64,000 bases of DNA from an uncultured Bacilli bacterium (GCA_944372455.1 CALVZF010000001.1:1815-65814), one strand, 5' to 3'. Positions 17,118 through 33,732 are shown, numbered from the stretch's first letter. Numbers and translations: made by a program. Notes: generated by a model from the letters alone, not told the origin.

Positions 17118-18956
17118 ATGACTAATAAAAGTGGTTTTTTTGGAATAAGAGAAATATATGCTTCATTTATATTAGTAGCTACTATGATATTTGTTTCCAT
17201 TTTTTCTTCAATGGCTGTATTTCAAAAGACAGTAGAAAAAGTAGGAGTTGCTTCATTAGTTGCTAATAATGTTAATCAAGTTTTATCTTCAACTGAAAGC
17301 TCATTTGTTTTATCAACAGATAAAACTTATGGAACTATTTTGGTTTCTTCTGGTAGTAGTAAATTTTTTGATATTACTATTACTAACGATAAAAATATAA
17401 ATACAAAGTATAAACTTTATTATAGGTTTACTTCTGGAGTTACAGTTTTGGATGTAGAGGTTGGTGTTTCTGATCAAAGTTTGAATAGTTCAAGTGCTAG
17501 TTTAAATAAATCTGGAAATGATGGTAATTCAAAAGTAGTTAGAGTTGGTATAAGAAATACTTCTAATCAAGATGTATCTATAGATATTGGTTCTCAAGGT
17601 GGATATGAAAATAATGAAGTTATATTACTTTCTGGAAGAAATGAAATGGGTACAATTTTAGAAAGTTATAAAGATAGTAGTGGAGCAAATTCACCAAAAT
17701 TAGCAAGCGGAATGATACCTGTAATTTATGATTCTGATAATGATAAATGGTTAAAAGCAGATGTTACAAGCGAGTGGTATGATTATGATAATCAATGGTG
17801 GGCTAATGCAGTAACAGTAACAAGTGATACTAGATCTACTTATCAAAGTGCTAGTCCATTAACTGAAATAAGTATGGATGATATCAATACTATGTGGGTA
17901 TGGATTCCAAGGTACAAATATAAAATTCCATGTGATATAGGTAGTAGTTCATCAATTGCTAGTCCACCAGAAATAGATGTAATATTTGAAAATGGTGTAG
18001 ATACCACGGGAGAAGAATTAGCAGATTGTCCAATAACATCAACAAGTTGTTATTATACTCATCCAGCATTTAGAGATGGAAGTAGTGTATATAAAACAAT
18101 AGCTTACGATCAAGGAGGTTGGGATAAAGAATTAGAAGGAATATGGGTAGGAAAATTTGAAATGGGCGGTAATAATACAACCCCAATAATAAAACCTAAT
18201 GAAATAACACTAAAAATTCAAGATGTAAGTACTCAATTTGATACATCATTAAAGTTTGCCGGTGGATCAAGAAATACAAGTAACGGAGCAATAACATTTT
18301 CAGGAAATAATATATATGGATTAACAAGTAGTACTGATACCCATATGATGAAAAATACTGAGTGGGGAGCAGTGGCTTACCTTTCGCAAAGTAAATATGG
18401 AAAGATGGGAAATTCAAATTATAGTGGGACAGATAAAGAAATTTATAAAAATAATAGTAGTACATATACAGGAAGAAGTAGCGGAAGTCCAAATGGTTCA
18501 GCTAATATTTATTCTTATAATGATACTATTTGTTCTGATACTTCCTGTGATGGGTCCAAGGTATTAAATAAAGGTACGGGGGCAAGTACTACAGGAACTA
18601 TATATGGTATTTATGATATGCACGGGGGAGCAAATGAATATATAATGAGTAACTGGGAAAATGATGTAAACATATCTGGATTTGATACAAATAATTTACC
18701 TGGGGGAAGTAATGGAAGCAAATATTACGAAAAATACACAGGATCTAATTCATCAATTGATGTAAATAATGCAATAAAAGGAGACGCAACATATGAGGTA
18801 AATAACTGGTATTTTGATTATAAGATAGATTCTGTCATTATTAGTTGGATTAATCGTGGATCAGGCTATGATGATAGCGATGGAGGAATTTTTGCATACG
18901 GTTCTTATGATGGTTATTCTGGTATAAATTCTACTCATGTAGTCTTGATTCCGTAA
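17118..18956 (+). CDS. membrane-anchored protein with FGE-sulfatase (SUMF1/EgtB/PvdO)-like domain
   Basis: N-terminal hydrophobic segment (possible degenerate pilin-like signal G-FFGIRE). C-terminal motifs resemble the FGE family (TEWGAVAYLSQSKYG; GIYDMHGGANEY vs YDMSGNVWEW). Confidence 0.4.
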   Translation: MTNKSGFFGIREIYASFILVATMIFVSIFSSMAVFQKTVEKVGVASLVANNVNQVLSSTESSFVLSTDKTYGTILVSSGSSKFFDITITNDKNINTKYKLYYRFTSGVTVLDVEVGVSDQSLNSSSASLNKSGNDGNSKVVRVGIRNTSNQDVSIDIGSQGGYENNEVILLSGRNEMGTILESYKDSSGANSPKLASGMIPVIYDSDNDKWLKADVTSEWYDYDNQWWANAVTVTSDTRSTYQSASPLTEISMDDINTMWVWIPRYKYKIPCDIGSSSSIASPPEIDVIFENGVDTTGEELADCPITSTSCYYTHPAFRDGSSVYKTIAYDQGGWDKELEGIWVGKFEMGGNNTTPIIKPNEITLKIQDVSTQFDTSLKFAGGSRNTSNGAITFSGNNIYGLTSSTDTHMMKNTEWGAVAYLSQSKYGKMGNSNYSGTDKEIYKNNSSTYTGRSSGSPNGSANIYSYNDTICSDTSCDGSKVLNKGTGASTTGTIYGIYDMHGGANEYIMSNWENDVNISGFDTNNLPGGSNGSKYYEKYTGSNSSIDVNNAIKGDATYEVNNWYFDYKIDSVIISWINRGSGYDDSDGGIFAYGSYDGYSGINSTHVVLIP

Positions 18957-19025
18957 AATTTTTGATAACAATCTACCGGTGACAACTGGTGGATTTGTTG
19001 TGACTCTGTTAAGTCATATAATAAG

Positions 19026-21171: not shown

Positions 21172-23286
21172 ATGAAAAAAAGAATAATAGTCATTAAACA
21201 AGAAGGTGTAAAAGACTGTGGAGTAGCTTCTTTACTTTCTATAATTAAATATTATGGTGGAAATATTGGTATAGAAAGATTAAGAGAAGAAACAAAAACT
21301 ACTAAGAATGGTACTACTGCTTTTCATTTAATTGATTATGCAAATAAAATAGGATTTAGTTCTAAAGGAATAAAATGTGCAGATATAAATGACTTGAAAT
21401 CTATCACTCTTCCTGCAATTGCTCATTTAGTTATCAATAAATCATATAAACATTATGTAGTAATTTATAAAGTAGATTTTAAACATAATGTAATAACAAT
21501 TATGGATCCTGCCTATGGTGTTAAGAAATTAACTTTTAAAGAGTTTAATAATATTTGGTCAAAAGTTATTATAACTTTTTATCCAATTGGTAAGATATCA
21601 AAATATGAGCAAAATAATAAAATTTATTCCTTAATCAAAAATATTCTTTTATCAAATAAAAGATTAATTTTTTGTACCATTATATTATCAATTTTTGTAA
21701 TAGGGTCAAATATTGTTAATTCTTATTATTTTAAAATTATAATTGATAATTTTTTTGGTAATTCTTTTTATAGTTTTTGTTTTATATCATTTATATTTGC
21801 TTTAATAATATTTTTAAAATTAATAAGTGATTATTTTAGAAATAAATTACTATTTAGCCTTCAACAAAAAATTGATTTTAATTTAATAACCACTTCTTTT
21901 AAACATATTATTAACCTCCCATATAACTATTTTAAAAACCATACTTCTGGAGAATTAATATCGAGAATTAACGATTTAAACTATATTAAAGAAATACTTA
22001 GTAAAATAATACTCAATGTTTTTTTAGATTCTATAATGATAATTTTTATTGCTATTATTTTATTTAATATTAATTTAAAATTATTTATTATAACTATCTT
22101 TATGTGTATGTTATATCTATTGATTGTTATTATCTTTTCTAAACTTTTTAAAAAACAAATTTTAATTTCTCAGATAAAATTTTCTAAAACTAATTCTTAC
22201 ATGTTTGAATGTACTAATGGGTTTGAAACAATAAAAAATATGAATTTAGAGAACAAAATTACTAATAATTTTGAAAATAAATATGTAGATTATCTAGGAC
22301 ATGAATACAAAGTTAGAAATTATAATAATATACAACAATTTTTTAAGAGTTTAATAAATGATATTGGTTCTTTAATAATTCTTTTTACAGGATATGTTTT
22401 AGTACTTCAAAACAAATTAAGTTTAGGGGAACTTATAACTTTCAATGTACTTTTATCATATTTTGTAAATCCTATAAGAAATATTCTTGATTTGGAGCCA
22501 TTAGTTAGATATGCTTTATCATCTTTAAAAAGAATTAATGAAATCTTTGAAATCAAACAAGAAAATCTATGTATTGATAATAAATATAGCGGTTGTAATA
22601 TTAAAGGAGAACTAGAGTTTAAAGGTCTTACATTTTCTTTTAATGATAAAGATAATATTCTAAATAATATAAATCTTAAAATTAGAAAAGGAGAGAGAAT
22701 AGCTATTATTGGTAAAAGTGGGTGTGGAAAATCTACTATGTTAAAATTGATTTTAAGATATAATGATATTAAAAGAAATATGATTTTTATTGATGGTAAA
22801 GATATTAATGATTATAATCTTAAAGAACTTAGAAATAATATTACATATGTATCACAAAACGAAGTATTGTTTAATGATACTATAATGAATAATATTTTGA
22901 TTAAAAATAATTTAGATTATGATACTTTTTTAAATAAGTGTAAATTAACTTTAGTAAATAATATTTGTAACAATAAATATTTAGGTTATGATACTTTATT
23001 AGAGGAAAATGGATTTAACTTATCAGGTGGAGAAAGAGAAAGAATAATTCTTTGTAGGGCTCTTACCAAAAATTCTAATTTAATTATTTTAGATGAAGCT
23101 TTAAATCAAATTGATGTAGATATGGAAAGAAAGATTTTGAAAAATTTATTTAGTTTGACTTTACACAAAACTATTATTGTTGTTTCACATAGGTTAGAAA
23201 ATTTAGATTTATTTGACAGAATTATAACAATGGAAAACGGGAATATCAAAAAAACAAATAAGAGAAGAGTTTATATTAATGGATGA
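21172..23286 (+). CDS. peptidase-C39 ABC transporter (bacteriocin/peptide exporter, ComA/LagD-like)
   Basis: N-terminal C39 domain with catalytic Cys (GVKDCGVASL), 6 TM helices, Walker A GKSGCGKST, signature LSGGERER. Confidence 0.9.
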   Translation: MKKRIIVIKQEGVKDCGVASLLSIIKYYGGNIGIERLREETKTTKNGTTAFHLIDYANKIGFSSKGIKCADINDLKSITLPAIAHLVINKSYKHYVVIYKVDFKHNVITIMDPAYGVKKLTFKEFNNIWSKVIITFYPIGKISKYEQNNKIYSLIKNILLSNKRLIFCTIILSIFVIGSNIVNSYYFKIIIDNFFGNSFYSFCFISFIFALIIFLKLISDYFRNKLLFSLQQKIDFNLITTSFKHIINLPYNYFKNHTSGELISRINDLNYIKEILSKIILNVFLDSIMIIFIAIILFNINLKLFIITIFMCMLYLLIVIIFSKLFKKQILISQIKFSKTNSYMFECTNGFETIKNMNLENKITNNFENKYVDYLGHEYKVRNYNNIQQFFKSLINDIGSLIILFTGYVLVLQNKLSLGELITFNVLLSYFVNPIRNILDLEPLVRYALSSLKRINEIFEIKQENLCIDNKYSGCNIKGELEFKGLTFSFNDKDNILNNINLKIRKGERIAIIGKSGCGKSTMLKLILRYNDIKRNMIFIDGKDINDYNLKELRNNITYVSQNEVLFNDTIMNNILIKNNLDYDTFLNKCKLTLVNNICNNKYLGYDTLLEENGFNLSGGERERIILCRALTKNSNLIILDEALNQIDVDMERKILKNLFSLTLHKTIIVVSHRLENLDLFDRIITMENGNIKKTNKRRVYING

Positions 23287-23713
23287 AATAATTAATATTA
23301 AAGATTATAAAAATTTAGATATATTAGAGTTTAAATATACCCATAAGTATTTAATAGTCTGTTTAGTAATACTAACAATGATTGTTATAATGTTATTAAA
23401 CATTAATGTTAATTTTATGTATGAAAATAAATTGTTAGTTCAAAAGAATTGTATAATTACTTTAATTAATATTGAAGATATAGATTTATTTAATAGAGTT
23501 AACTATATTACTATAGGTAATAAAAAATATAATTTTAAAATTCAATCTTTAAGTATACCTAAAAAAGTTAATAATGATTTTTATCAAGAGTTAAGATTAA
23601 CTTTAAATAATTTTAATTCTACAGAAAATGAAGTTATACCATATAGTATAAATTATGAATCTAAAAAAGTTTTTAAAATAGTTAAAGAAATCTTTAATGA
23701 TAGGAGGGCATGA
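23279..23713 (+). CDS. small membrane protein, bacteriocin accessory or immunity candidate
   Basis: 144 aa with one TM helix; translationally coupled between the exporter and the peptide genes. Confidence 0.35.
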   Translation: MDEIINIKDYKNLDILEFKYTHKYLIVCLVILTMIVIMLLNINVNFMYENKLLVQKNCIITLINIEDIDLFNRVNYITIGNKKYNFKIQSLSIPKKVNNDFYQELRLTLNNFNSTENEVIPYSINYESKKVFKIVKEIFNDRRA

Positions 23714-23850
23714 TGTTATTAAGTAATGAACAATTATTAGAAATTGAAGGAGGTATAAATACACTTACATTTTCTGGGATACTAGGTGGAATTATTTTTT
23801 TAATTGGCATAGTATCTGGATTTGTAAGACCAATTAAATGTTCAAAATAG
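23710..23850 (+). CDS. double-glycine-leader bacteriocin precursor (peptide alpha)
   Basis: RBS TAGGAGGG; leader MMLLSNEQLLEIEGG; mature INTLTFSGILGGIIFLIGIVSGFVRPIKCSK (GxxxG-rich, cationic C-terminus). Not in the ORF track. Confidence 0.65.
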   Translation: MMLLSNEQLLEIEGGINTLTFSGILGGIIFLIGIVSGFVRPIKCSK

Positions 23851-23865
23851 GAGGTTGAAGTAAAA

Positions 23866-24033
23866 ATGGAATTAAAAAAAGAAGAATTATTAAATATAGA
23901 AGGGGGAATCAATCTTTCTGGAACCCTTATATCAGCTTTTACTAAAATTATTACTACAATATTAGATGTTGGTAGAAGTCTAGGTTCAGCACTTAGAAGG
24001 ATTAGTAGTGGTATGGTATGTCCCTTAAGTTAA
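23866..24033 (+). CDS. double-glycine-leader bacteriocin precursor (peptide beta)
   Basis: RBS GGAGG; leader MELKKEELLNIEGG; mature 41 aa peptide with a GxxxG motif and a single Cys. Not in the ORF track. Confidence 0.65.
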   Translation: MELKKEELLNIEGGINLSGTLISAFTKIITTILDVGRSLGSALRRISSGMVCPLS

Positions 24034-24399: not shown

Positions 24400-24436
24400 T
24401 AAATCTCTGTTTCTTTAATGTTTTATAAAAAAATAG

Positions 24437-24465
24437 AAAGGTTGCACCCCCTGAGGGCAACCTTT
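24437..24465 (+). terminator. GC-rich stem-loop after rpsU containing the CCCCCTGAGG motif
   Basis: AAAGGTTGC-ACCCCCTGAGG-GCAACCTTT; 9 bp stem, no strong T-run. Confidence 0.4.
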
Positions 24466-24658
24466 CAAAAAAGAATAAAAAGGGGTTGGCTAGTGTGATA
24501 CTAGCACCAATTCGCCTAATTGGGAATTGGTAGTTCCTATACTAATTCATCTTTAAATATTTGTCAACATTTTTTAACATTTTTTTTAATTTTTTTCAAT
24601 ATAGTTTTTTTTAATAGTTATTTTAGTTATAATATTATATAAGAAAAAGGTGATCATC

Positions 24659-26653
24659 ATGGATTTATTAAACGTGTCTGGTATTGGTCCTAAATCAATA
24701 AATCTATTACATAAATTAAATATTTATACGATTTGCGATCTTTTAAATTATTATCCTTTTAGATATGAAATTTTGAAACTTGATAAACTATCTTTAAAAG
24801 CTGATGACGAAAAAGTAATTATAGAAGGATTAATAGAAAAAATTCCAACTGTTATAAGATTAAAAGGAAACATGAATAAAATGAGTTTAAGAGTTTTATC
24901 AGATGATATGTTAGTCAATGTTGTAATTTTTAATAGAGGGTTTATGAAACCTCATTTTCAAATTGGAAAAGAAATTACCATTATTGGTAAATGGAATAAG
25001 CTTAAGAATACTATCACTGCTTCTGATATTAGATTTGAAAAAATTAATGGTGTAAAAATAGAAAGTATTTATAGAACTACTCAAGGTTTAAATAAAAGAA
25101 TGTTATCAAAATATATAGATAATGCAATTAATGGGTGCATTAATGAACTTACTGATTATATACCTTTTTTTCTTTCAAACAAATATAATTTTATGGATAA
25201 AGAACAAGCAATTAAAATAATTCATAATCCGTTTGATATTGAAAGTTTAAAACAAGCACAAATAAGATTAAAATATGAAGAATTATTTGTTTTCATGTTA
25301 AAAATTAATTGTTTAAAACTTAAAAATCAAAAGCAAAACAATGGTTTACAAAGAGAAATAGATTATAATAAAGTAACAGAATTTATTGAACATCTTCCTT
25401 TTAAATTAACTACTGATCAATTAAGTGCAGTTTCAGAAATAAAAGATGATCTAATAAGTCCTAAAAGAATGAATAGATTACTACAAGGAGATGTTGGTAG
25501 TGGTAAAACTATTGTTAGTATTATTGCTTCTTATATAAATTATTTATCTGGTTATCAAACTGCTTTTATGGCACCTACTGAGATATTAGCTACTCAACAT
25601 TTTGAAAATATAAAAAAGTTATTTAATGATTATAATATAAACGTAGAACTATTAACTGGAAGTACAAAGAAGAAAGAAAAAAAACAGATTTATCAAAAAT
25701 TAGAAAATGGCGAAATAGATTTAATTATTGGTACTCATACTTTGATTCAAGACGATATTAAATATAAAAATTTAGGATTAGTTATAACAGATGAACAGCA
25801 CCGATTTGGAGTTAATCAAAGGTCAAATTTGAGCAATAAAGGAATGATGCCAGATATTTTATATATGAGTGCGACTCCAATACCTAGAACTTATGCTTTA
25901 ACTATATATGGAGATATGGATGTATCAAATATAAAGACAAGACCACAAGGTAGAAAAGATATAATAACTTATGTTAAAAATAATAATGAAATTATTGATG
26001 TGTTAAAATTGATGAAACAAGAACTTGATAGTAACCATCAAATTTATATAATAGCTCCACTAATTGAAGAGAGTGAAAGAAGCGATTTAGAAAACGTGTA
26101 TAAATTAGAAACTAATTTTAAAAAAGCTTTTAAAAATAATACTATTGAAATTTTGCATGGAAAAATGAGTTCAGAAGAAAAAGATGACGTAATGAATAAA
26201 TTTTCTAAAAATGAAACTAATATTTTAATTAGTACTACTGTTATAGAAGTTGGTGTAGATGTTAAAAATGCTACTATGATAGTAATTTTTGATGCTAATA
26301 GGTTTGGGCTTTCAACTTTACACCAATTAAGAGGAAGAGTAGGTAGAAATGATTTACAATCATATTGTGTATTAATTAGTGATAAATCAAAAGAACGATT
26401 AGAAATATTAAAAAATACTAACGATGGTTTTGAAATTAGTGAACAAGATTTTAAATTAAGAGGACAAGGAGATTTATTTGGAATAAAACAAAGTGGTGAT
26501 ATGACTTTTAAAATTGCCAATTTGAAAGAAGACTATAAAATATTGTTACAAGCTAAAAATGATTCATTGGAATTTCTTAAAAATGAGGTTTACACTCTTG
26601 ACAATAAGAAAATAATAGATGAAATCCTTGGAAATATTGACAATTTAAACTAA
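24659..26653 (+). CDS. recG: ATP-dependent DNA helicase RecG
   Basis: Wedge domain, Walker A GDVGSGKT, DEQH box (ITDEQHRFG), helicase C motifs (QLRGRVGR). ATG 24659 follows a GGTGA RBS. Confidence 0.9.
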   Translation: MDLLNVSGIGPKSINLLHKLNIYTICDLLNYYPFRYEILKLDKLSLKADDEKVIIEGLIEKIPTVIRLKGNMNKMSLRVLSDDMLVNVVIFNRGFMKPHFQIGKEITIIGKWNKLKNTITASDIRFEKINGVKIESIYRTTQGLNKRMLSKYIDNAINGCINELTDYIPFFLSNKYNFMDKEQAIKIIHNPFDIESLKQAQIRLKYEELFVFMLKINCLKLKNQKQNNGLQREIDYNKVTEFIEHLPFKLTTDQLSAVSEIKDDLISPKRMNRLLQGDVGSGKTIVSIIASYINYLSGYQTAFMAPTEILATQHFENIKKLFNDYNINVELLTGSTKKKEKKQIYQKLENGEIDLIIGTHTLIQDDIKYKNLGLVITDEQHRFGVNQRSNLSNKGMMPDILYMSATPIPRTYALTIYGDMDVSNIKTRPQGRKDIITYVKNNNEIIDVLKLMKQELDSNHQIYIIAPLIEESERSDLENVYKLETNFKKAFKNNTIEILHGKMSSEEKDDVMNKFSKNETNILISTTVIEVGVDVKNATMIVIFDANRFGLSTLHQLRGRVGRNDLQSYCVLISDKSKERLEILKNTNDGFEISEQDFKLRGQGDLFGIKQSGDMTFKIANLKEDYKILLQAKNDSLEFLKNEVYTLDNKKIIDEILGNIDNLN

Positions 26654-26785
26654 TGATTAAAAATTTTAAATTTTATTGGTATAAATATTATTGACATTTA
26701 TTTGAATTTTTAATATTATGTATTTAGCGTGATAGTATTACACGCTCACTCTTACGATTATATGTGAGAGTGTATTCAACCAAAA

Positions 26786-26823
26786 CCCCCTGAAGACGGA
26801 CTTATGTCCGTCGCTTTTTGTTT
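26786..26823 (+). repeat. CCCCCTGAAGAC + hairpin + T-run element (terminator-like), copy B
   Basis: CCCCCTGAAGACGGAC-TTAT-GTCCGTC-GCTTTTTGTTT. Same motif as 32990-33028 with compensatory stem changes. Confidence 0.5.
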
Positions 26824-26841
26824 ATGTACAATTAAAAAATA

Positions 26842-26870
26842 TTGACTTTTAGATAATTAAATAATAGAAT
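26842..26870 (+). promoter_or_regulatory. putative sigmaA promoter of the six-gene operon
   Basis: TTGACT - 17 nt - TAGAAT. Confidence 0.4.
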
Positions 26871-26921
26871 ATTAGTGAATTTTTGGAAATTGTGTTTTCC
26901 TATGGAGAAGACCAACTAGAA

Positions 26922-26956
26922 GGACAAAGGAAACATTTTACTTTTTGTCCTTTTTT
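26922..26956 (+). promoter_or_regulatory. leader terminator/attenuator hairpin in the 5' UTR of the six-gene operon
   Basis: GGACAAAG-loop-CTTTTTGTCC followed by TTTTTT, between the promoter and the RBS of the gene at 26988. Confidence 0.5.
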
Positions 26957-26987
26957 ATAAATTTACAATATTAATGAGAGGTGCAAT

Positions 26988-28115
26988 ATGGTCTGTAATA
27001 TTAAACAAAATACTTTAATAAAGAAGATTCATAAAGATATAGATAGAAAATTTGATAAAGTTATTTATATAAATATTCAGAATTTTTCAATTAATGGCTG
27101 TGCAATCTATCAAAAGAGAAAATGTTTTTTCAAAATAACAGATGAGGATTATTTTATTAAAGAAATAAATGGTTATCTTATTTCTTATAAAGAAATTCCA
27201 ACTATGACCATATTATTTGTAAAGTATTTATCTCATTGTAAAAAATATTTAATTGCTTATAATTTTAATAATAAAGTAAAGGAGAATAGTGGCTTATTAA
27301 ATGATATACTTGTAAAGAATGATAAAACTAATATAAGAGATAAAGCAACAGATAGAGAACTTAAAAATATTTTAGATGCTTATAGTACTATTTATAGTAG
27401 AAAAAAGGTATTTAGAAGTTATTGTCCTAGTAATATATTCTTTATTGAAAGGATAAATTCAAGATTAGACAAATGGTATATGAACTGTAGTGATTTTAAA
27501 AAGTTAATTGTCATAAATGGTAAGTACAACTTTAATTTACAAAACATTTTAAAAGAAACAAAAGAATATTTTTTAAATAATAAAAATAAAAAGTATCAAT
27601 GTATTTTAAGCCAAGGTGATCCAAATACTCTAAATATTTCCTCAACACCGTGTTTTTTTGATTTAGCAACTGCTGGTTATAATCCTATAATTGGTGAATT
27701 AGCTATTACAATTATATCTACTTTAATTTATGACAATTATTTTTGCCCAAAATATCATAGTAAATCGTACTATTTACACGAACTTGCTATTGAACAGTCA
27801 AGTTTATTTGAACCTAATTTACATTATAAATATAATAAATCTAATATTTATATAAATTCCGATATAATAACAAGTGATATAAGAAAAAAATATATTTTAA
27901 GTTATTTAGAAATTTTAAAGAAAAATAATATACATATAGGAAAAGAAATTAAGTATTATATTATAATGAGATTATTGTGTGTTTTTAATGTTAGAAAAAT
28001 GTCAAAAAAAGATTATTATTATTCTCTATATTTAGTATGTTATTTTTATAAAAATATAGACAATAATTTTTATAAATCTATTAGTGATATAATTAATGAA
28101 ATGGGGTGCGTTTAA
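26988..28115 (+). CDS. protein-kinase-like (APH/ChoK-fold) small-molecule phosphotransferase
   Basis: Catalytic loop LSQGDPNTLNI (cf. HGDxHPGNIL) and metal-binding FDLATAG (cf. DFE/DxG). Confidence 0.5.
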   Translation: MVCNIKQNTLIKKIHKDIDRKFDKVIYINIQNFSINGCAIYQKRKCFFKITDEDYFIKEINGYLISYKEIPTMTILFVKYLSHCKKYLIAYNFNNKVKENSGLLNDILVKNDKTNIRDKATDRELKNILDAYSTIYSRKKVFRSYCPSNIFFIERINSRLDKWYMNCSDFKKLIVINGKYNFNLQNILKETKEYFLNNKNKKYQCILSQGDPNTLNISSTPCFFDLATAGYNPIIGELAITIISTLIYDNYFCPKYHSKSYYLHELAIEQSSLFEPNLHYKYNKSNIYINSDIITSDIRKKYILSYLEILKKNNIHIGKEIKYYIIMRLLCVFNVRKMSKKDYYYSLYLVCYFYKNIDNNFYKSISDIINEMGCV

Positions 28116-28802
28116 ATGAATAATAATTATACAGATATAATTGATGATTATATAGAAAATTTGAAAGGGGCACTAGATAATAATCTTGAATTAATTTATA
28201 TAATTGGTAGTAGTGCTACAAAAGATGTAGTTGTTGGTTGGAGTGATATAGACTGTATTATTGTTATTAGTAATTATAATTTTAATGATATAGAAACCAT
28301 TAAAAAAATTTCTAATAGTTATGATATTAAGATAGGTAATACAATTTATTCTAAAAATGAATTTGAAAAGGGATTGTTAGATCAAAAAACTATATATTAT
28401 CTTTTATTAAATCAAGAAAAAATCTTAAATATAGCTTATATAAATTCAAATTTAAAAATACCAAATATAGATTATAATAATTGTAAAAATGCGACTAAAA
28501 CACTTCTTTTTAATGATTTACATAATTGCAAGAGATTATTAACATATATGAATTTAGATAGCGGACAAGTTAAATCTTTATTTAAAAAAATATATGTAAT
28601 TATGAAATCAATTCTAATATTACATAATTATAGACCGAAAAATTATAAAGAAACTTTTAATATGTTTAGCACTAACTTTAACTATGAATATTTTGATTAC
28701 CTTAAATTTATAGAAGATTTTAAAATGAATCAAGTAGACGAAAAAAAACTTAAAAATTATGCTTTTAAATTAATAGTATATGTTACTGATAAGATTTTAT
28801 AA
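28116..28802 (+). CDS. Pol-beta-superfamily nucleotidyltransferase (ANT/Lnu/AadA-like: NTase + helical C-domain)
   Basis: GSSATKD-x6-SDIDCIIVI minimal NTase motif (GS...D.D); start codon abuts the upstream stop. Confidence 0.55.
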   Translation: MNNNYTDIIDDYIENLKGALDNNLELIYIIGSSATKDVVVGWSDIDCIIVISNYNFNDIETIKKISNSYDIKIGNTIYSKNEFEKGLLDQKTIYYLLLNQEKILNIAYINSNLKIPNIDYNNCKNATKTLLFNDLHNCKRLLTYMNLDSGQVKSLFKKIYVIMKSILILHNYRPKNYKETFNMFSTNFNYEYFDYLKFIEDFKMNQVDEKKLKNYAFKLIVYVTDKIL

Positions 28803-28830
28803 TTCATATTCCAGGGAGGTGGAAGTAGCA

Positions 28831-29976
28831 ATGAATATGCCAAGACAATTTGATGATTTTGTTACATTTTTTGATATTGGAATAGAAAATATTAATCAAG
28901 AACAGTTTAGAACTTTGTACTGTGTTATGTCCGAAACCGTGAAGAAAAGAAATAATATTACTAGATTAGCATTACAATATTTATTAGATAAAGAGAAACT
29001 TACACAAGAAGAAAAAAATATTGCAACAACTATACTTGATGATAGTTATTATCAGAAACCTAATAGATATGAACATTGTAAACTATGTTCTGATGATTTT
29101 AATAGAGAAATACTGGCAAAATATAGTAATAGATTTAGGTTTTGGGAATTGTGCTTTCCAACTGTCCCATATTTTCCTGCTAATATGATGGTATATTTAA
29201 AAAATAGACAATTTATTCATAAAGAAAATTTTCAAGATTTAACAATAGAAGAACTAGAAGAATTAAAATATATTATAAGTAATTTAAAGGAAACTTTAAA
29301 TAATAATGTATTTAATGGTGAACTTACAGGTATAAATGTTTTGTTTAATCAAATATCTAAATCACAATTATGTATTCATGGGCACATAGAGTTGATGATA
29401 AGAAATATTGATAAATTAAATTATGGATGTACTTTGCTTAAAACTAGAAATTATGACCCTGTTGTTGAGAAAATAAATAATAAAATGAAAAGAAAAACAG
29501 GAGTTATACCAACATTAGAAGGTATTAGAATAAATATGAGCAATGTTAGTGATAAAATAGCATTAGATTATATAAATGAATATGAAAATAATTTATTAGA
29601 TATTATAAGATTAGGTAATGAATTAAGAAAGGGACAGCAAAAGGTAAATGGTGATTTTGATATGCTGTTGTTGAACGGCTTGAGTCCAGCACCTACAGAT
29701 TCAATATATTTAACTGATTACAGAGGAGAGTTGTTTTTATCAGCTGTTCCTGAAATTATACCACCAACTATTAATATTTCTGAAGTTGGGGATTTAAATG
29801 ATGCAGAAAATATGTATTTAATTAAATATAATGCTACAACACCTAATAGTAAATATGCAATTATGAAAAAGTATAGTCCATTAGTTAGACCGAGTAGTAA
29901 AGTTCCTTATGAAATGTCATATACCGAAAATGTAAAAGTGTTGACAAGAAAGATAGGTGATGTATTAAATATATGA
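28831..29976 (+). CDS. hypothetical enzyme, possible HIT/GalT-like nucleotidyl transferase or phosphorylase
   Basis: H-G-H-I-E motif (CIHGHIELM) reminiscent of HxHxQ/HxHxH; otherwise no clear domain. ATG 28831 follows a GGGAGGTGGA RBS. Confidence 0.3.
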   Translation: MNMPRQFDDFVTFFDIGIENINQEQFRTLYCVMSETVKKRNNITRLALQYLLDKEKLTQEEKNIATTILDDSYYQKPNRYEHCKLCSDDFNREILAKYSNRFRFWELCFPTVPYFPANMMVYLKNRQFIHKENFQDLTIEELEELKYIISNLKETLNNNVFNGELTGINVLFNQISKSQLCIHGHIELMIRNIDKLNYGCTLLKTRNYDPVVEKINNKMKRKTGVIPTLEGIRINMSNVSDKIALDYINEYENNLLDIIRLGNELRKGQQKVNGDFDMLLLNGLSPAPTDSIYLTDYRGELFLSAVPEIIPPTINISEVGDLNDAENMYLIKYNATTPNSKYAIMKKYSPLVRPSSKVPYEMSYTENVKVLTRKIGDVLNI

Positions 29977-31496
29977 AAACTAATGAGTTAATTTATGATA
30001 AAACTTTAAAGAAAATGCTTTTTGAATATATAGAAAAATTAGACAGTTTTATTATTAATACAAGTGGATATCCAACTTCAAATTGTCAAACTAAAGGAGA
30101 AGTAAACGATGTTTTCTTCAAAAAGTTAAATACAACAAAAATAAAGAAACTTTATAGTGGTGACTATCTATCTTTGTTTAATGAGTATTATAATTTATTA
30201 CAAGGAAAAGTAAAAACAAATAAAATTATAGCGTTGCTGTATAAAGATAATGATATTTTCGAATTTTCGCAGTTAATTGATAAAGAAAAGTTTTTAGATA
30301 ATGCTAATGTTTTTCAATGGGATGATATAAGTAATCTCTTTGATATAATTCTATTAGAAATTAATGCTTGTGTTAATTATAATAAAAGTAGTAAAATAAA
30401 GTTGGGAATTGAAACAGCGATTTGGAATTTTACAATAGATGGTATTCTTTTTGATTTAGATCCACCTAAACTATTAAAGAAAACAGAAGATACAAGTTTT
30501 ACTAGAAAAGAAGATATTAATCATATTAAAAGAACAATTTATCGTAGTTTTGATGAAACAGGTATGAAAATTAACTTGCTTGTTACTTTGAAATTAGGAG
30601 AAAAACATAATAGTTTTATTATAAAAAATAAACCTGATAATTATCTAATAATTCTTTTAAAAAAAATACTTGATAGTTATACTAAAGAAGATGATAGAAA
30701 AAAATTAGTAGAAAAATTATACAATGGTGTGTCTGCAAATGAGATGTTTGTAGATCACCCTATAGAAATTTTAAGGAGGGAACTTATGATGAGAGAACAA
30801 AGTATGAATAAAGAAATAGTATTTGTTGCTGGTACTTCTGAGTCTGGCAAAAGTGGAGGAATAAACTATTTAAAAGATAAATATGATGAAATTCAACATA
30901 TAAAAATAAGAGATGTTTTTCCTAAAGTTTATGAAGATACTCAAACAAATTTATCTTTTGAAGAATGGCAAGATGTTGAAGAAAAAAGAGATTTAAATAA
31001 CTTTTGGAGATTATTTGTAAATAAGGTTTATGAAATGGCTAATCCTGAAAAAAGTATTATAATTTTAGATACAATGTACGGTGTTGATGGTATGATAGAG
31101 TTATATAAAATATTAGGTGATAAAGTTAATTTACTATATATTGATGCTCCATTCAATGATAGAGTTATGAGAGAGTATTTAAGATTAAGAACAGATTCTC
31201 CAAGAGGTACAAGAAAAGCAGATTTATCAGTAACAATAGAAGATGTAGTAGAAAGAACAATAAAAAAAGATAAGAAAAAAAATAGCAGACGTGCTAATAA
31301 ATTAAAAGAGTTACGTTATAGTGCTGACTATAAAAGTTTAGAAATAGGTGGATTAGGAGAGCAATTTACTTATTTAATTAATAATGATAGTAATATTGAT
31401 AACTTTTATTCGTCTTTAGATAAATATATTAATCATATAAAAAATAAAAGTACTGATAAATCAGATGTAGAGTTACAAAAGAGGCTAAAAAAATGA
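29973..31496 (+). CDS. two-domain protein with C-terminal P-loop kinase-like NTPase
   Basis: Walker A VAGTSESGKSG and a hydrophobic-strand-Asp Walker B candidate (IIILDTMYG); N-terminal 270 aa of unknown fold. Overlaps the upstream stop (ATGA). Confidence 0.4.
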   Translation: MKTNELIYDKTLKKMLFEYIEKLDSFIINTSGYPTSNCQTKGEVNDVFFKKLNTTKIKKLYSGDYLSLFNEYYNLLQGKVKTNKIIALLYKDNDIFEFSQLIDKEKFLDNANVFQWDDISNLFDIILLEINACVNYNKSSKIKLGIETAIWNFTIDGILFDLDPPKLLKKTEDTSFTRKEDINHIKRTIYRSFDETGMKINLLVTLKLGEKHNSFIIKNKPDNYLIILLKKILDSYTKEDDRKKLVEKLYNGVSANEMFVDHPIEILRRELMMREQSMNKEIVFVAGTSESGKSGGINYLKDKYDEIQHIKIRDVFPKVYEDTQTNLSFEEWQDVEEKRDLNNFWRLFVNKVYEMANPEKSIIILDTMYGVDGMIELYKILGDKVNLLYIDAPFNDRVMREYLRLRTDSPRGTRKADLSVTIEDVVERTIKKDKKKNSRRANKLKELRYSADYKSLEIGGLGEQFTYLINNDSNIDNFYSSLDKYINHIKNKSTDKSDVELQKRLKK

Positions 31497-32014
31497 ATTT
31501 AACATTTTTAAGACATGGTACAACTGATTTAAATGGAAAAGGATTAATTGCTACAAAGTTAGACTATTCTTTAAATGATAATGGAAGAAAACAATGTGTG
31601 GAAAATATTTTTGCAAAAGATGATTTTAGCATCGTTTATTCTTCGCCTTATAAAAGGACTTTAGAAACTGCTAGACTTGTGTATCCATATAGTGAACCTA
31701 TTATATTACCTTGTATTGTGCAACGCAATTTAGGTGTTTTAAATGAAAAATATAAAAAAGATTATACTAGAGAATATTTAAAGTTGGTTAGAGATTATAT
31801 AGTTAATCCCGAAGGTGCAGAAACATTAAATGATATAATAATTAGATTAGATTACTTTTTTGATTACGTTAAACTAAATAATAGTGAAAATGCTAATATT
31901 TTAGTAGTTACTCATAATGGTATTATGAGAATAATAAAGAAGTATTATATGAATGAAACAAATAATATAGAAAGTGAAAATTTGGAAAAATTTACTTTGA
32001 CTTTAAAGAGGTAA
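31493..32014 (+). CDS. histidine phosphatase (phosphoglycerate-mutase/CobC family)
   Basis: RHG motif (LRHGTTDLN), SSPYKRTLETA, second His (VVTHNGIMR). Confidence 0.7.
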   Translation: MNLTFLRHGTTDLNGKGLIATKLDYSLNDNGRKQCVENIFAKDDFSIVYSSPYKRTLETARLVYPYSEPIILPCIVQRNLGVLNEKYKKDYTREYLKLVRDYIVNPEGAETLNDIIIRLDYFFDYVKLNNSENANILVVTHNGIMRIIKKYYMNETNNIESENLEKFTLTLKR

Positions 32015-32168
32015 GATACTAACAAAATATAATATGAATTTTTGGAATATATTATTAATACTAATTATTTAGCAGTTGTAATATAATTTGTTCATTATAC
32101 AACAGGAAGTACATTTACAATATAGATAGTGTAAGAAAGTTATTCTAAATAATAGAGGTGGTTATTAT

Positions 32169-32657
32169 ATGCGAGAAAGTATAAAAATTAAAACAGATAA
32201 TTATAATTTTAAGTTTAGAGTTTCAGGATTAATTATAAAAAATAATAAGCTTTTATTAGTTGATATGGATGATAGTGGTTTTTGGTGTTTACCTGGAGGT
32301 TATGTAGAACTAGGTGAAACAACAGAGACTGCAGTTAAACGCGAATTGTTAGAAGAAGTAGGAAAAAAGTTTGATATTAGTAAATATTTGGGTGTAGTAG
32401 AAAATTACTTTATAAATAAATATTCAAAAAAAATTCATGAAATATCTTTCTACTATTTAATGAGTCCTATAGAAAATATAGATACTAATAATTTTACTAT
32501 TATTGAAAATGATAAAGGTCATAATATAAAGTTGGCTTTCAAGTGGATTGATTTAAAAGAAGTAAATAATTATGATATCAGACCTAGTTTTCTTAAACAA
32601 ATCTTAGAAAGTGAAAATCTTGAATTTAATCATCTGATTTTTAATGAGTTAGATTAA
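32169..32657 (+). CDS. Nudix hydrolase
   Basis: Nudix box GGYVELGETTETAVKRELLEEVG. Confidence 0.8.
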   Translation: MRESIKIKTDNYNFKFRVSGLIIKNNKLLLVDMDDSGFWCLPGGYVELGETTETAVKRELLEEVGKKFDISKYLGVVENYFINKYSKKIHEISFYYLMSPIENIDTNNFTIIENDKGHNIKLAFKWIDLKEVNNYDIRPSFLKQILESENLEFNHLIFNELD

Positions 32658-32989
32658 GCGCATTATTATTTATAATAAAAAATGATAATTATTTAAACCT
32701 TAAAAAGATTTTAATATTTATAGATAGAAATCTTTAGATTACCAATTCAAGTGATATAGTTATTATGAAAGGTATAAGGTTTTTATGGAAAAATAGTAAT
32801 TGAACTATATATAAAATAATTTCGGGATTCTATACATGTATAAAATATTAAATTAGGTAATAATTAGGTAATATTTTTTTAGATTTTTCTTAATTATATT
32901 TAATTTTCTTTAATATAAATTAAATTAAAACAGTTAAAAAAATAATGGGAAAATGAAGTTGTAAAATAAAAAATGACTAAACAACTTCG

Positions 32990-33028
32990 CCCCCTGAAGA
33001 CAGACCGAGAGGTCTGTCATTTGTTTTT
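32990..33028 (+). repeat. CCCCCTGAAGAC + hairpin + T-run element, copy C
   Basis: CCCCCTGAAGACAGACC-GAGA-GGTCTGTC-ATTTGTTTTT, preceded by hairpin GAAGTTGT...ACAACTTC. Confidence 0.5.
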
Positions 33029-33191
33029 ATACCCATAAAATGGGGGATTTAAGATAAATTTAAATATTTCCAAACTACATTAAACCACATTTTATTAATT
33101 TTCAGTGGTTAGATAAATGAATAAAGAGTTTAACTAAGAGATTTTTAATAAATTTCTTAGTTTTTTTAATAAATATAGAAAGGAGTCAAAA

Positions 33192-33335
33192 ATGTCAGAA
33201 TGTAAAATAATCGCAATAACAAATCAGAAAGGAGGGGTAGGTAAAACTACAACTACCTTTAATCAAGGATGCATCAAGAATTATAGAATAATTACTTATC
33301 TTTTATACCAACTAGTACATCTAATGAAACATTAA
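33192..33335 (+). pseudogene. truncated ParA/Soj-family partition ATPase (N-terminal 30 aa, then out-of-context tail)
   Basis: MSECKIIAITNQKGGVGKTTTTFNQG deviant Walker A, then the frame runs into the antisense strand of the XRE gene and stops after 47 codons. Confidence 0.6.
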
Positions 33336-33732
33336 AAATTTTACATAAACTAATTAGTGTTTCAACAGAAATTGATCTTTTTTGAGTTTCATATTGTGAT
33401 ATTGTATTATGATTATAGGATAGTTTATTCGCTAAGTCTTTTTGTGTCGTATTTTTTGATAACCGGTAATTTTTAAGAATTTTAGTTAATTGGGATAATT
33501 TAAATTTTTTTCTATTACCATTAAAGTATTTAATGTTTGTTATTCCTACAATATAATCTAAACTAACATTATAAAATTCAGCAATTTCAAGTAGTAAAGA
33601 AATTGGTATAGCATTTTTTTGTGTTTCATATTCTACATAGGATCTACGATTTATATTTAATCTATTTGAAATATCTTCTTGTGAATAATTATAATATTCT
33701 CGTAAATCTTTGATTCTAAATTTTTTAATCAT
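33292..33732 (-). CDS. tandem XRE-family HTH transcriptional regulator
   Basis: Two Cro/C1-type HTH repeats (QEDISNRLNINRRSYVEYE and QKDLANKLSYNHNTISQYE). Confidence 0.7.
   Translation of the reverse strand: MIKKFRIKDLREYYNYSQEDISNRLNINRRSYVEYETQKNAIPISLLLEIAEFYNVSLDYIVGITNIKYFNGNRKKFKLSQLTKILKNYRLSKNTTQKDLANKLSYNHNTISQYETQKRSISVETLISLCKIFNVSLDVLVGIKDK

Follow-up and report, generated by a model that had tools for sequence, protein, structure and literature searches.

The attachment sites of streptococcal integrative and conjugative elements (ICEs) and integrative and mobilisable elements (IMEs) are known for tandem accretion and for cis-mobilisable elements (CIMEs). It is established that prophages and islands integrate at the 3′ ends of transfer RNA (tRNA), transfer-messenger RNA (tmRNA) and some small-RNA (sRNA) genes, and the small-RNA genes ryeB and ryeE are known phage integration targets (PMC3603311). 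The locus described here lies in a stretch of 64,000 nucleotides (nt) from an uncultured Bacilli bacterium (GCA_944372455.1, CALVZF010000001.1:1815-65814), given as one strand, 5′ to 3′, and referred to at its full length as the window. Its G+C content is 24.2%. Three intergenic copies of a C-rich ten-base motif, termed copies A, B and C, are each associated with a strong hairpin. We conclude, with a probability of about 85%, that the motif is the tail of a small RNA, sRNA-B, which doubles as a chromosomal attachment site (attB), that copies B and C bound an inserted island, and that copy A is the loop of a second small RNA, sRNA-A.

The consensus CCCCCTGARG is matched at exactly three places in the window, each of them intergenic and on the + strand, at 24447-24456 (A), 26786-26795 (B) and 32990-32999 (C). 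Dinucleotide shuffles gave a mean expectation of 0.03, none of 100 shuffles reaching three matches, and the motif is non-random. With up to two mismatches allowed, no further credible copy was found in the 64 kb. The hairpins are as the original prediction described them. The range 24437-24465, previously assigned to copy A, is that of a hairpin, GAAAGGTTGC-loop-GCAACCTTTC at 24436-24466, and the motif proper is situated inside its loop. Copy B is associated with GACGGAC-TTAT-GTCCGTC (26795-26812) and copy C with GACAGACC-GAGA-GGTCTGTC (32999-33018), each followed by a T-run. In each of the three regions the predicted fold is far more stable than that of shuffled controls (z = -4.0 to -5.8). 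Copies B and C have 16 of 17 bases in common (CCCCCTGAAGACRGAC), and the sole difference in their stems is compensated. Both are called as terminators by a terminator scan, and in both the motif is unpaired on folding and lies directly upstream of the terminator. Six genes (26988-32657) are bracketed by the two copies, as had been proposed. A search by eye for short peptides near B and C gave only trivial open reading frames (ORFs) with no common frame, and a literature search for the decamer returned unrelated primers only.

Copy B is part of a conserved host small-RNA gene, sRNA-B (Table 1). The gene consists of a promoter, two hairpins, an unpaired 3′ tail CAACCAAAACCCCCUGAAG and a terminator, the stem of which is opened by the final G of the decamer. 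The recG neighbourhoods of four relatives with 69-75% RecG identity were fetched for comparison. In these RecG-anchored relatives the promoter and the RNA body are near-invariant through the last base of CCCCCTGAAG. Past this point they share nothing but a G+C-rich hairpin with a T-run each. The TTGACA and the -10 region of the promoter are invariant in the relatives L002, L003 and L006 (L numbers denote related loci throughout). The same arrangement is present in three remoter relatives (61-63% RecG identity). As these were picked via RecG and not via the motif, their agreement indicates that the sRNA-B pattern was not created by the way of finding the loci. On its upstream side sRNA-B has recG and rpsU, or other housekeeping genes.

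One genome per species was scanned with the 19-mer CAACCAAAACCCCCTGAAG. At least 120 loci were recovered, 118 among them being genuine sRNA-B genes with 107 distinct sequences, and the gene is present in uncultured low-GC gut Bacilli, in at least 118 genomes at the species level. The metagenome-assembled genomes (MAGs) that carry it are labelled as uncultured Bacilli, Tenericutes, Mycoplasma, Erysipelotrichaceae and similar. Folded individually, the sRNA-B sequences have the same three-hairpin architecture throughout. In hairpin 2 (nine pairs, 108 distinct sequences) 89.4% of the alignment cells are paired, compared with 76.6% in shuffled controls and 31-58% with a slid partner, and the observed pairing was reached by 0 of 500 shuffles. 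Double changes occupy 118 cells where 28 are expected, and compensatory changes occur at all nine pairs. An alignment of hairpin 2 only was used, as RNAalifold on a plain MAFFT alignment of the whole of sRNA-B gave no structure because variable loop lengths broke that alignment.

A covariance model composed of hairpin 2 and CAACCAAAA (model R1) scores 58.2 bits at 26739-26785 and detects nothing else credible in the window. Rfam gave no match for sRNA-B, either at gathering thresholds or at E = 10 on the isolated region. Variants of sRNA-B without the CAACCAAAA linker were observed at L128/L129 and L130 (ACUCAAACCCCCUGAAG, CAACCGAACCCCCUGAAG). The decamer alone is constant in these variants, and the 19-mer scan therefore undercounts the family.

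The sequence that follows the core is variable in letter and constant in kind. Among the 129 distinct contexts of the core, a hairpin stands directly behind it in 124, the five exceptions being A-type copies. Scored as short stems with at most one mismatch, these hairpins have 6-12 pairs with a mean of 63% G+C, a loop that is often GAAA and usually a T-run, with at least five T within the next 9 nt in 90 of the 124 hairpin-bearing contexts. At least 70 different stems stand behind the decamer, and 82 begin at the last G of the core. The diversity of the stems, their G+C content and the T-runs argue that the hairpins are terminators from the last-arrived element rather than a structure conserved together with the motif. 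The RNA gene is intact after insertion, as a terminator-type hairpin is retained behind the core in those 124 contexts. Selection on motif plus structure had been proposed from the compensated difference between B and C. The motif is conserved, but the hairpin is the terminator of the inserted element, and the single stem difference reflects two related terminators rather than selection on a motif-plus-stem unit. Identical classes of downstream hairpin plus flank occur behind different sRNA-B variants, as expected of elements that move between species.

The elements themselves provide the second line of evidence. A scan of viral contigs recovered a divergent sRNA-B (L007) with a convergent integrase (L007:5259-6374) 264 nt past the motif and phage genes beyond, which is a prophage; a further viral scan, based on a second class of hairpin, gave no hits. 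Homologues of the L007 integrase (39-54% identity) are present in 23 listed genome loci, always on the opposite strand. Fifteen of the 23 start 90-250 nt past the core, and in the other eight a cargo gene lies between the motif and the integrase. The proteins carry the Pfam Phage_integrase (catalytic) domain and an N-terminal Arm-DNA-bind_4 domain, which makes them lambda-type tyrosine enzymes. They are found only inside the downstream elements, none being fixed beside sRNA-B.

One complete element, of 10.6 kb, is present at L132, where sRNA-B and its core are followed by an integrase, replication/mobilisation-like and cargo genes, and a second core. The two ends of this element have nothing in common beyond the ten bases CCCCCTGAAG. 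An occupied and an unoccupied site were found in one host lineage. The L134 sequence matches L136 at 98% through the sRNA and the core, and its match to L135, at 93.5%, starts exactly at the first core C; L136 and L135 are located on a single 63-kb contig, separated by an integrase-bearing element. Homology between relatives stops exactly after the decamer. Distal cores bound cargo in at least ten cases (L002, L003 with two, L006, L053, L064, L102, L131, L132 and L135), the cargo including DpnII and type I restriction-modification, Abi_2, AIPR, AAA_21 and DUF6602. The sequence upstream of the distal cores is unrelated, with no promoter or RNA body. Across more than 120 related loci the motif is confined to sRNA-A, sRNA-B and the distal ends of elements inserted after sRNA-B.

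Two words, TTTAGGTAC and TTTATAAGGGTTT, are strongly enriched 25-130 nt past the cores, and TTAGGTA-type words are enriched near cores at loci other than that of the window. Such words would fit putative arm-type or accessory binding sites. The word ATTACGAAC was also observed, up to about 70 nt upstream of distal (attR-type) cores, at L002 (~18915-18984), L006 (~15610) and L132 (immediately ahead of the distal core); it may be a P-arm binding site. Numerous MAG contigs end at or within ~150 nt of the sRNA-B core (L012, L014, L015, L037, L038, L043, L046, L049, L050, L066, L077, L079, L085 and L087). The site is a systematic assembly breakpoint, as expected if the strains in a sample differ in their insert.

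The proposed mechanism is as follows. The CCCCCTGAAG sequence in the 3′ tail of sRNA-B would act as the attachment core in the chromosome that is used by lambda-type tyrosine integrases of one family, enzymes that prophages and mobilisable islands carry. Strands would be exchanged inside the decamer, which would insert the element and duplicate the core. The element would bring its own G+C-rich hairpin and T-run, so that the sRNA-B gene stays terminated, and the older terminator would be pushed to the far end of the element. Within the window, attL would be copy B with the terminator of the element, and attR would be copy C with the displaced older terminator.

Copies B and C are best read as the attL and attR, respectively, of a 6.2-kb island. 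Copy C is assigned as attR because no sRNA-B body precedes it, it matches B from the first core C onward, and comparable distal cores are found elsewhere. Model R1 detects one sRNA-B body only in the window, and C is therefore a core plus a terminator and nothing more. One suggestion of the original prediction, that the copies might be the ends of an inserted cassette, agrees for B and C with the att-core direct repeats that flank the island at the 3′ end of a small RNA. The island encodes a protein of 375 amino acids (aa), a nucleotidyltransferase, proteins of 398 aa and 507 aa, a histidine phosphatase and a NUDIX hydrolase. Compared with PADLOC, its genes gave weak matches to candidate defence families only. 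A P-loop-like GTSESGKSG motif was observed in the 507-aa protein. The six-gene module is intact at 60-72% identity at L140 (515-6692), L141 (5025-10537) and L142 (5023-10529). The module recurs in unrelated contexts, tRNA genes being the neighbours of one copy and a Y1 transposase and a Mob_Pre relaxase those of another, and is therefore accessory DNA. A tblastx comparison of the window with the DNA downstream of sRNA-B in close relatives gave no common genes.

Several points weigh against this account. The motif is absent from the flanks of the island homologues at L140-L142. No homologue of the integrase family is encoded in the island or anywhere in the window, and the island would therefore be a decayed element or one that was moved in trans. 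No strain with an empty site for this island was found among all fetched loci and in one metagenome scan, the pattern of which matched the hairpins of both B and C and found related sites; the same search of the fetched loci gave no second copy of the island. The mode of entry is for this reason taken from the behaviour of the family, and the island probably entered via the core integration route. The empty site expected from such integration would have the sRNA-B tail joined directly to the hairpin of C (ACAGACCGAGAGGTCTGT). The conservation of the 19-mer in the 118 loci was forced by the scan pattern itself, and only the seven RecG-anchored and six hairpin-anchored loci are free of this bias.

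The tandem ATTAGGTAATA repeat shortly before copy C could conceivably be an integrase arm-type site; TTAGGTAA is not enriched across the whole window. At the other end of the island, a second promoter-like site (TTGACT-17-TAGAAT, 26842-26870) lies between the terminator of B and the first island gene, and a hairpin with a T-run, GGACAAAGG...TTTTTGTCCTTTTTT (~26921-26957), lies just before the first island start codon. Together, they could form a leader or attenuator. Past copy C (33019-33732), a CCCATAAAATGGGGG stretch resembles the GCCCATTTTATAAGG words that follow cores elsewhere, and a Cro/CI-type regulator with two helix-turn-helix (HTH) domains is encoded on the minus strand at 33292-33732. 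These may mark the remnant of a second, older element behind the island.

Copy A is not an attachment site. It is the terminator loop of a second small RNA, sRNA-A. The tract after rpsU had been proposed as a possible small RNA with two more hairpins past copy A, and both hairpins are present (24489-24505 and 24506-24531). The tract does hold a conserved small-RNA gene, but on the minus strand, where copy A reads as the motif's reverse complement and is part of a different element. The T-run behind the hairpin is present on the minus strand only. An unpaired stretch, CAACCCCUUUUUAUUCUUUU, separates hairpin 2 of sRNA-A from the terminator. Conservation of the gene was seen in 34 distinct sequences; its usual place is ~2.3 kb upstream of sRNA-B, across recG, and the TTGACA of its promoter is at the same distance in relatives. 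The terminator has compensatory changes at eight of eight stem pairs and the loop CAGGGGG in 29 of 32 aligned sequences. The fixed loop on a varying stem argues for selection on the loop sequence. No Rfam match for sRNA-A was found. Both sRNA-A and sRNA-B are presumably expressed.

At the RNA level the loop of sRNA-A is CUCAGGGGG(U), which can pair with the tail of sRNA-B. The loop CUCAGGGGGU of the sRNA-A gene (24428-24532, minus strand) is complementary to the tail ACCCCCUGA (26773-26795, plus strand), and is the only perfect complement of that tail in the window. The predicted loop-tail duplex has 9 base pairs (bp) at -18.2 kcal/mol, loop variants from other species giving -15.7 to -20.6, and the alternative partner of the loop, the C-rich linker of sRNA-A itself, gives ~-10. 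Short segments were used for these values, RNAduplex on the full-length RNAs being uninformative as shuffled sequences scored as well. Pairing of sRNA-A with sRNA-B is plausible from these predictions. A wider proposal is more doubtful. In it, the two RNAs would form a conserved interacting pair (CUCAGGGGG with CCCCCUGA), as a sponge or an antisense acting in trans; the pairing would have frozen the decamer in more than 100 species and hence made it an integrase target, and integrase-less units would be moved in trans. This combination is put forward tentatively, the odds being against it.

Table 1. Coordinates of the features described, counted from the first nucleotide of the window
Feature	Position	Strand	Basis or details
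sRNA-B promoter, TTGACA-17 nt-TATTAT, sigma-70-type	26691..26719	+	11/12 consensus match
sRNA-B gene, ~98 nt	26726..26823	+	fold -32.4 kcal/mol, z = -4.7
sRNA-B hairpin 1	26726-26746	+	fold
sRNA-B hairpin 2	26747-26772	+	fold, covariation
sRNA-B unpaired linker UAUUCAACCAAAACCCCCUGAA	26773-26794	+	fold
sRNA-B terminator	26795-26812, T-run to 26823	+	fold, terminator scan
Copy B, att core CCCCCTGAAG in the sRNA-B tail, read as attL (RNA gene/island junction)	26786..26795	+	
Island, 6.2 kb, six genes (26988-32657)	26796..32989	+	ORFs, Pfam
Tandem ATTAGGTAATA x2	32852..32873	+	read in sequence, 117-138 nt before copy C
Copy C, distal direct repeat, read as attR	32990..33028	+	core CCCCCTGAAG 32990-32999, hairpin 32999-33018, T-run 33019-33028
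sRNA-A promoter, TTGACA-17 nt-TAGTAT	24539..24567	-	promoter scan
sRNA-A gene, ~105 nt	24428..24532	-	conservation, covariation
sRNA-A hairpin 1	24531-24506	-	
sRNA-A hairpin 2	24505-24489	-	
sRNA-A terminator, loop CCCUCAGGGGGU (copy A in reverse)	24466-24436	-	

Three other explanations of the motif were weighed. The presence of an identical 10-nt motif beside strong hairpins at three intergenic sites is what a single dispersed repeat family, REP/BOX-type or terminator-associated, would produce, and such a family was among the original suggestions. It is contradicted by the count of only three copies in 64 kb, with nothing credible at up to two mismatches, and by the restriction of the motif in more than 130 related loci to sRNA-A, sRNA-B and positions downstream of sRNA-B. 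The hairpins are also unrelated in sequence, with at least 70 stems, so that no palindromic unit is conserved, and in copy A the motif is inside a loop of a gene on the other strand. Next to no weight is left for a repeat family, and the suggestion has been abandoned. The motif and hairpin might otherwise be an RNA 3′-end module selected at each site, as a shared seed or protein-binding sequence in RNAs derived from 3′ untranslated regions (3′-UTRs), with no recombination scar. The unpaired position of the motif directly before the terminator in B and C is in keeping with this. In Firmicute small RNAs such as RoxS/RsaE, unpaired tails rich in C typically act as the seed regions. However, the distal copies occur only downstream of sRNA-B and are preceded by unrelated sequence without a promoter or RNA body, the homology breakpoints fall exactly at the core, and integrases adjoin the core. 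Independent selection of a module at each site is accordingly judged very improbable.

An integron-like array is the rival with most in its favour. Integrase-less cassettes, each ending in a core and a hairpin, would here be shuffled in trans by a recombinase that recognises core plus hairpin. At L003 three cores within 4.7 kb separate units of two genes, none of the annotated genes being an integrase, and the island in the window likewise has no integrase of the family described above. A hairpin of conserved structure and variable sequence lies behind every core, and the cargo is defence-like (restriction-modification, Abi_2, AIPR, AAA_21). On the other hand, no recombinase gene is fixed beside the sRNA gene; the integrases are inside the elements and have a lambda-type arm-binding domain. 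The hairpins, scored as short stems, are near-perfect G+C stems with T-runs, which points to terminators rather than to imperfect attC-like folds. The integrase-less units are explained by decay of larger elements after tandem insertion. Shuffling of this kind is considered unlikely, and integration at the sRNA-B tail by element-borne integrases is preferred.

A conserved gene cluster was observed upstream of rpsU (21172-24033), in which a Peptidase_C39 ABC exporter is accompanied by a ~144-aa protein and by one to three small ORFs (44-56 aa). The exporter cluster is also present at L002 (6406-9443) and L003 (1313-4353), and resembles a locus for the export of a bacteriocin or peptide.

The sRNA-B gene ending in CCCCCTGAAG provides a sequence-defined landmark for prophages, mobilisable islands and defence cargo in low-GC gut Bacilli. 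Assemblies of this uncultured group often break exactly at its core. The integrase family and its attachment site could serve as a site-specific integration tool in these organisms. Two widely conserved small RNAs are absent from Rfam, and their complementary C5/G5 motifs suggest a regulatory pair. If units are indeed moved in trans, the locus would be a defence-gene array that behaves like an integron; to our knowledge, integrons are not known in this lineage.

In comparison with known systems, sRNA-A and sRNA-B resemble RoxS/RsaE (RF01820) in their length of ~100 nt, 5′ hairpins and intrinsic terminator, and in the possession of an unpaired C-rich stretch (CAACCCCUUUUU in sRNA-A and CCCCCUGAAG in sRNA-B). 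The RsaE/RoxS family was rejected as a candidate, its best hit scoring 26.2 bits against a threshold of 79 (E = 0.54), no better than chance, with the wrong hairpins and spanning the rpsU terminator. No match to it was obtained when sRNA-A or sRNA-B was searched alone. The locus shares with the attI/attC sites of integrons an ordered set of accessory, often defence-type units, a short core with a variable hairpin and a fixed promoter-bearing site upstream. It differs in that no resident integrase is located beside the site, the integrases are lambda-type arm-binding enzymes inside the elements, and the hairpins are terminators. By the features tested, the locus is not REP/BOX, not RsaE/RoxS and not an integron.

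As in the streptococcal CIMEs, integrase-less units bounded by att sites stand beside integrase-bearing elements; decay can explain these units, and movement in trans is possible. Unlike the CIMEs, the elements here target a small-RNA gene instead of the end of a protein gene, and the mobility of the units is putative. The closest similarity is to the sites in tRNA, tmRNA, ryeB (SdsR) and ryeE (CyaR) genes. In all of these a tyrosine integrase targets a conserved 3′ stretch of a structured RNA gene, the core is duplicated as direct repeats, the 3′ end of the gene is restored by the element, and repeated use builds tandem arrays. Unlike the enterobacterial ryeB and ryeE, sRNA-B is a different RNA family, absent from Rfam 15, in another phylum-level lineage. 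The shared identity can be as short as 10 nt, in contrast to those sites, and any functional terminator restores the end of sRNA-B, the stems of attL and attR being unrelated. The mechanism is thus one already known, and what is apparently new is the combination of an uncatalogued target RNA, a very short core and the replacement of the terminator of the gene by unrelated hairpins.

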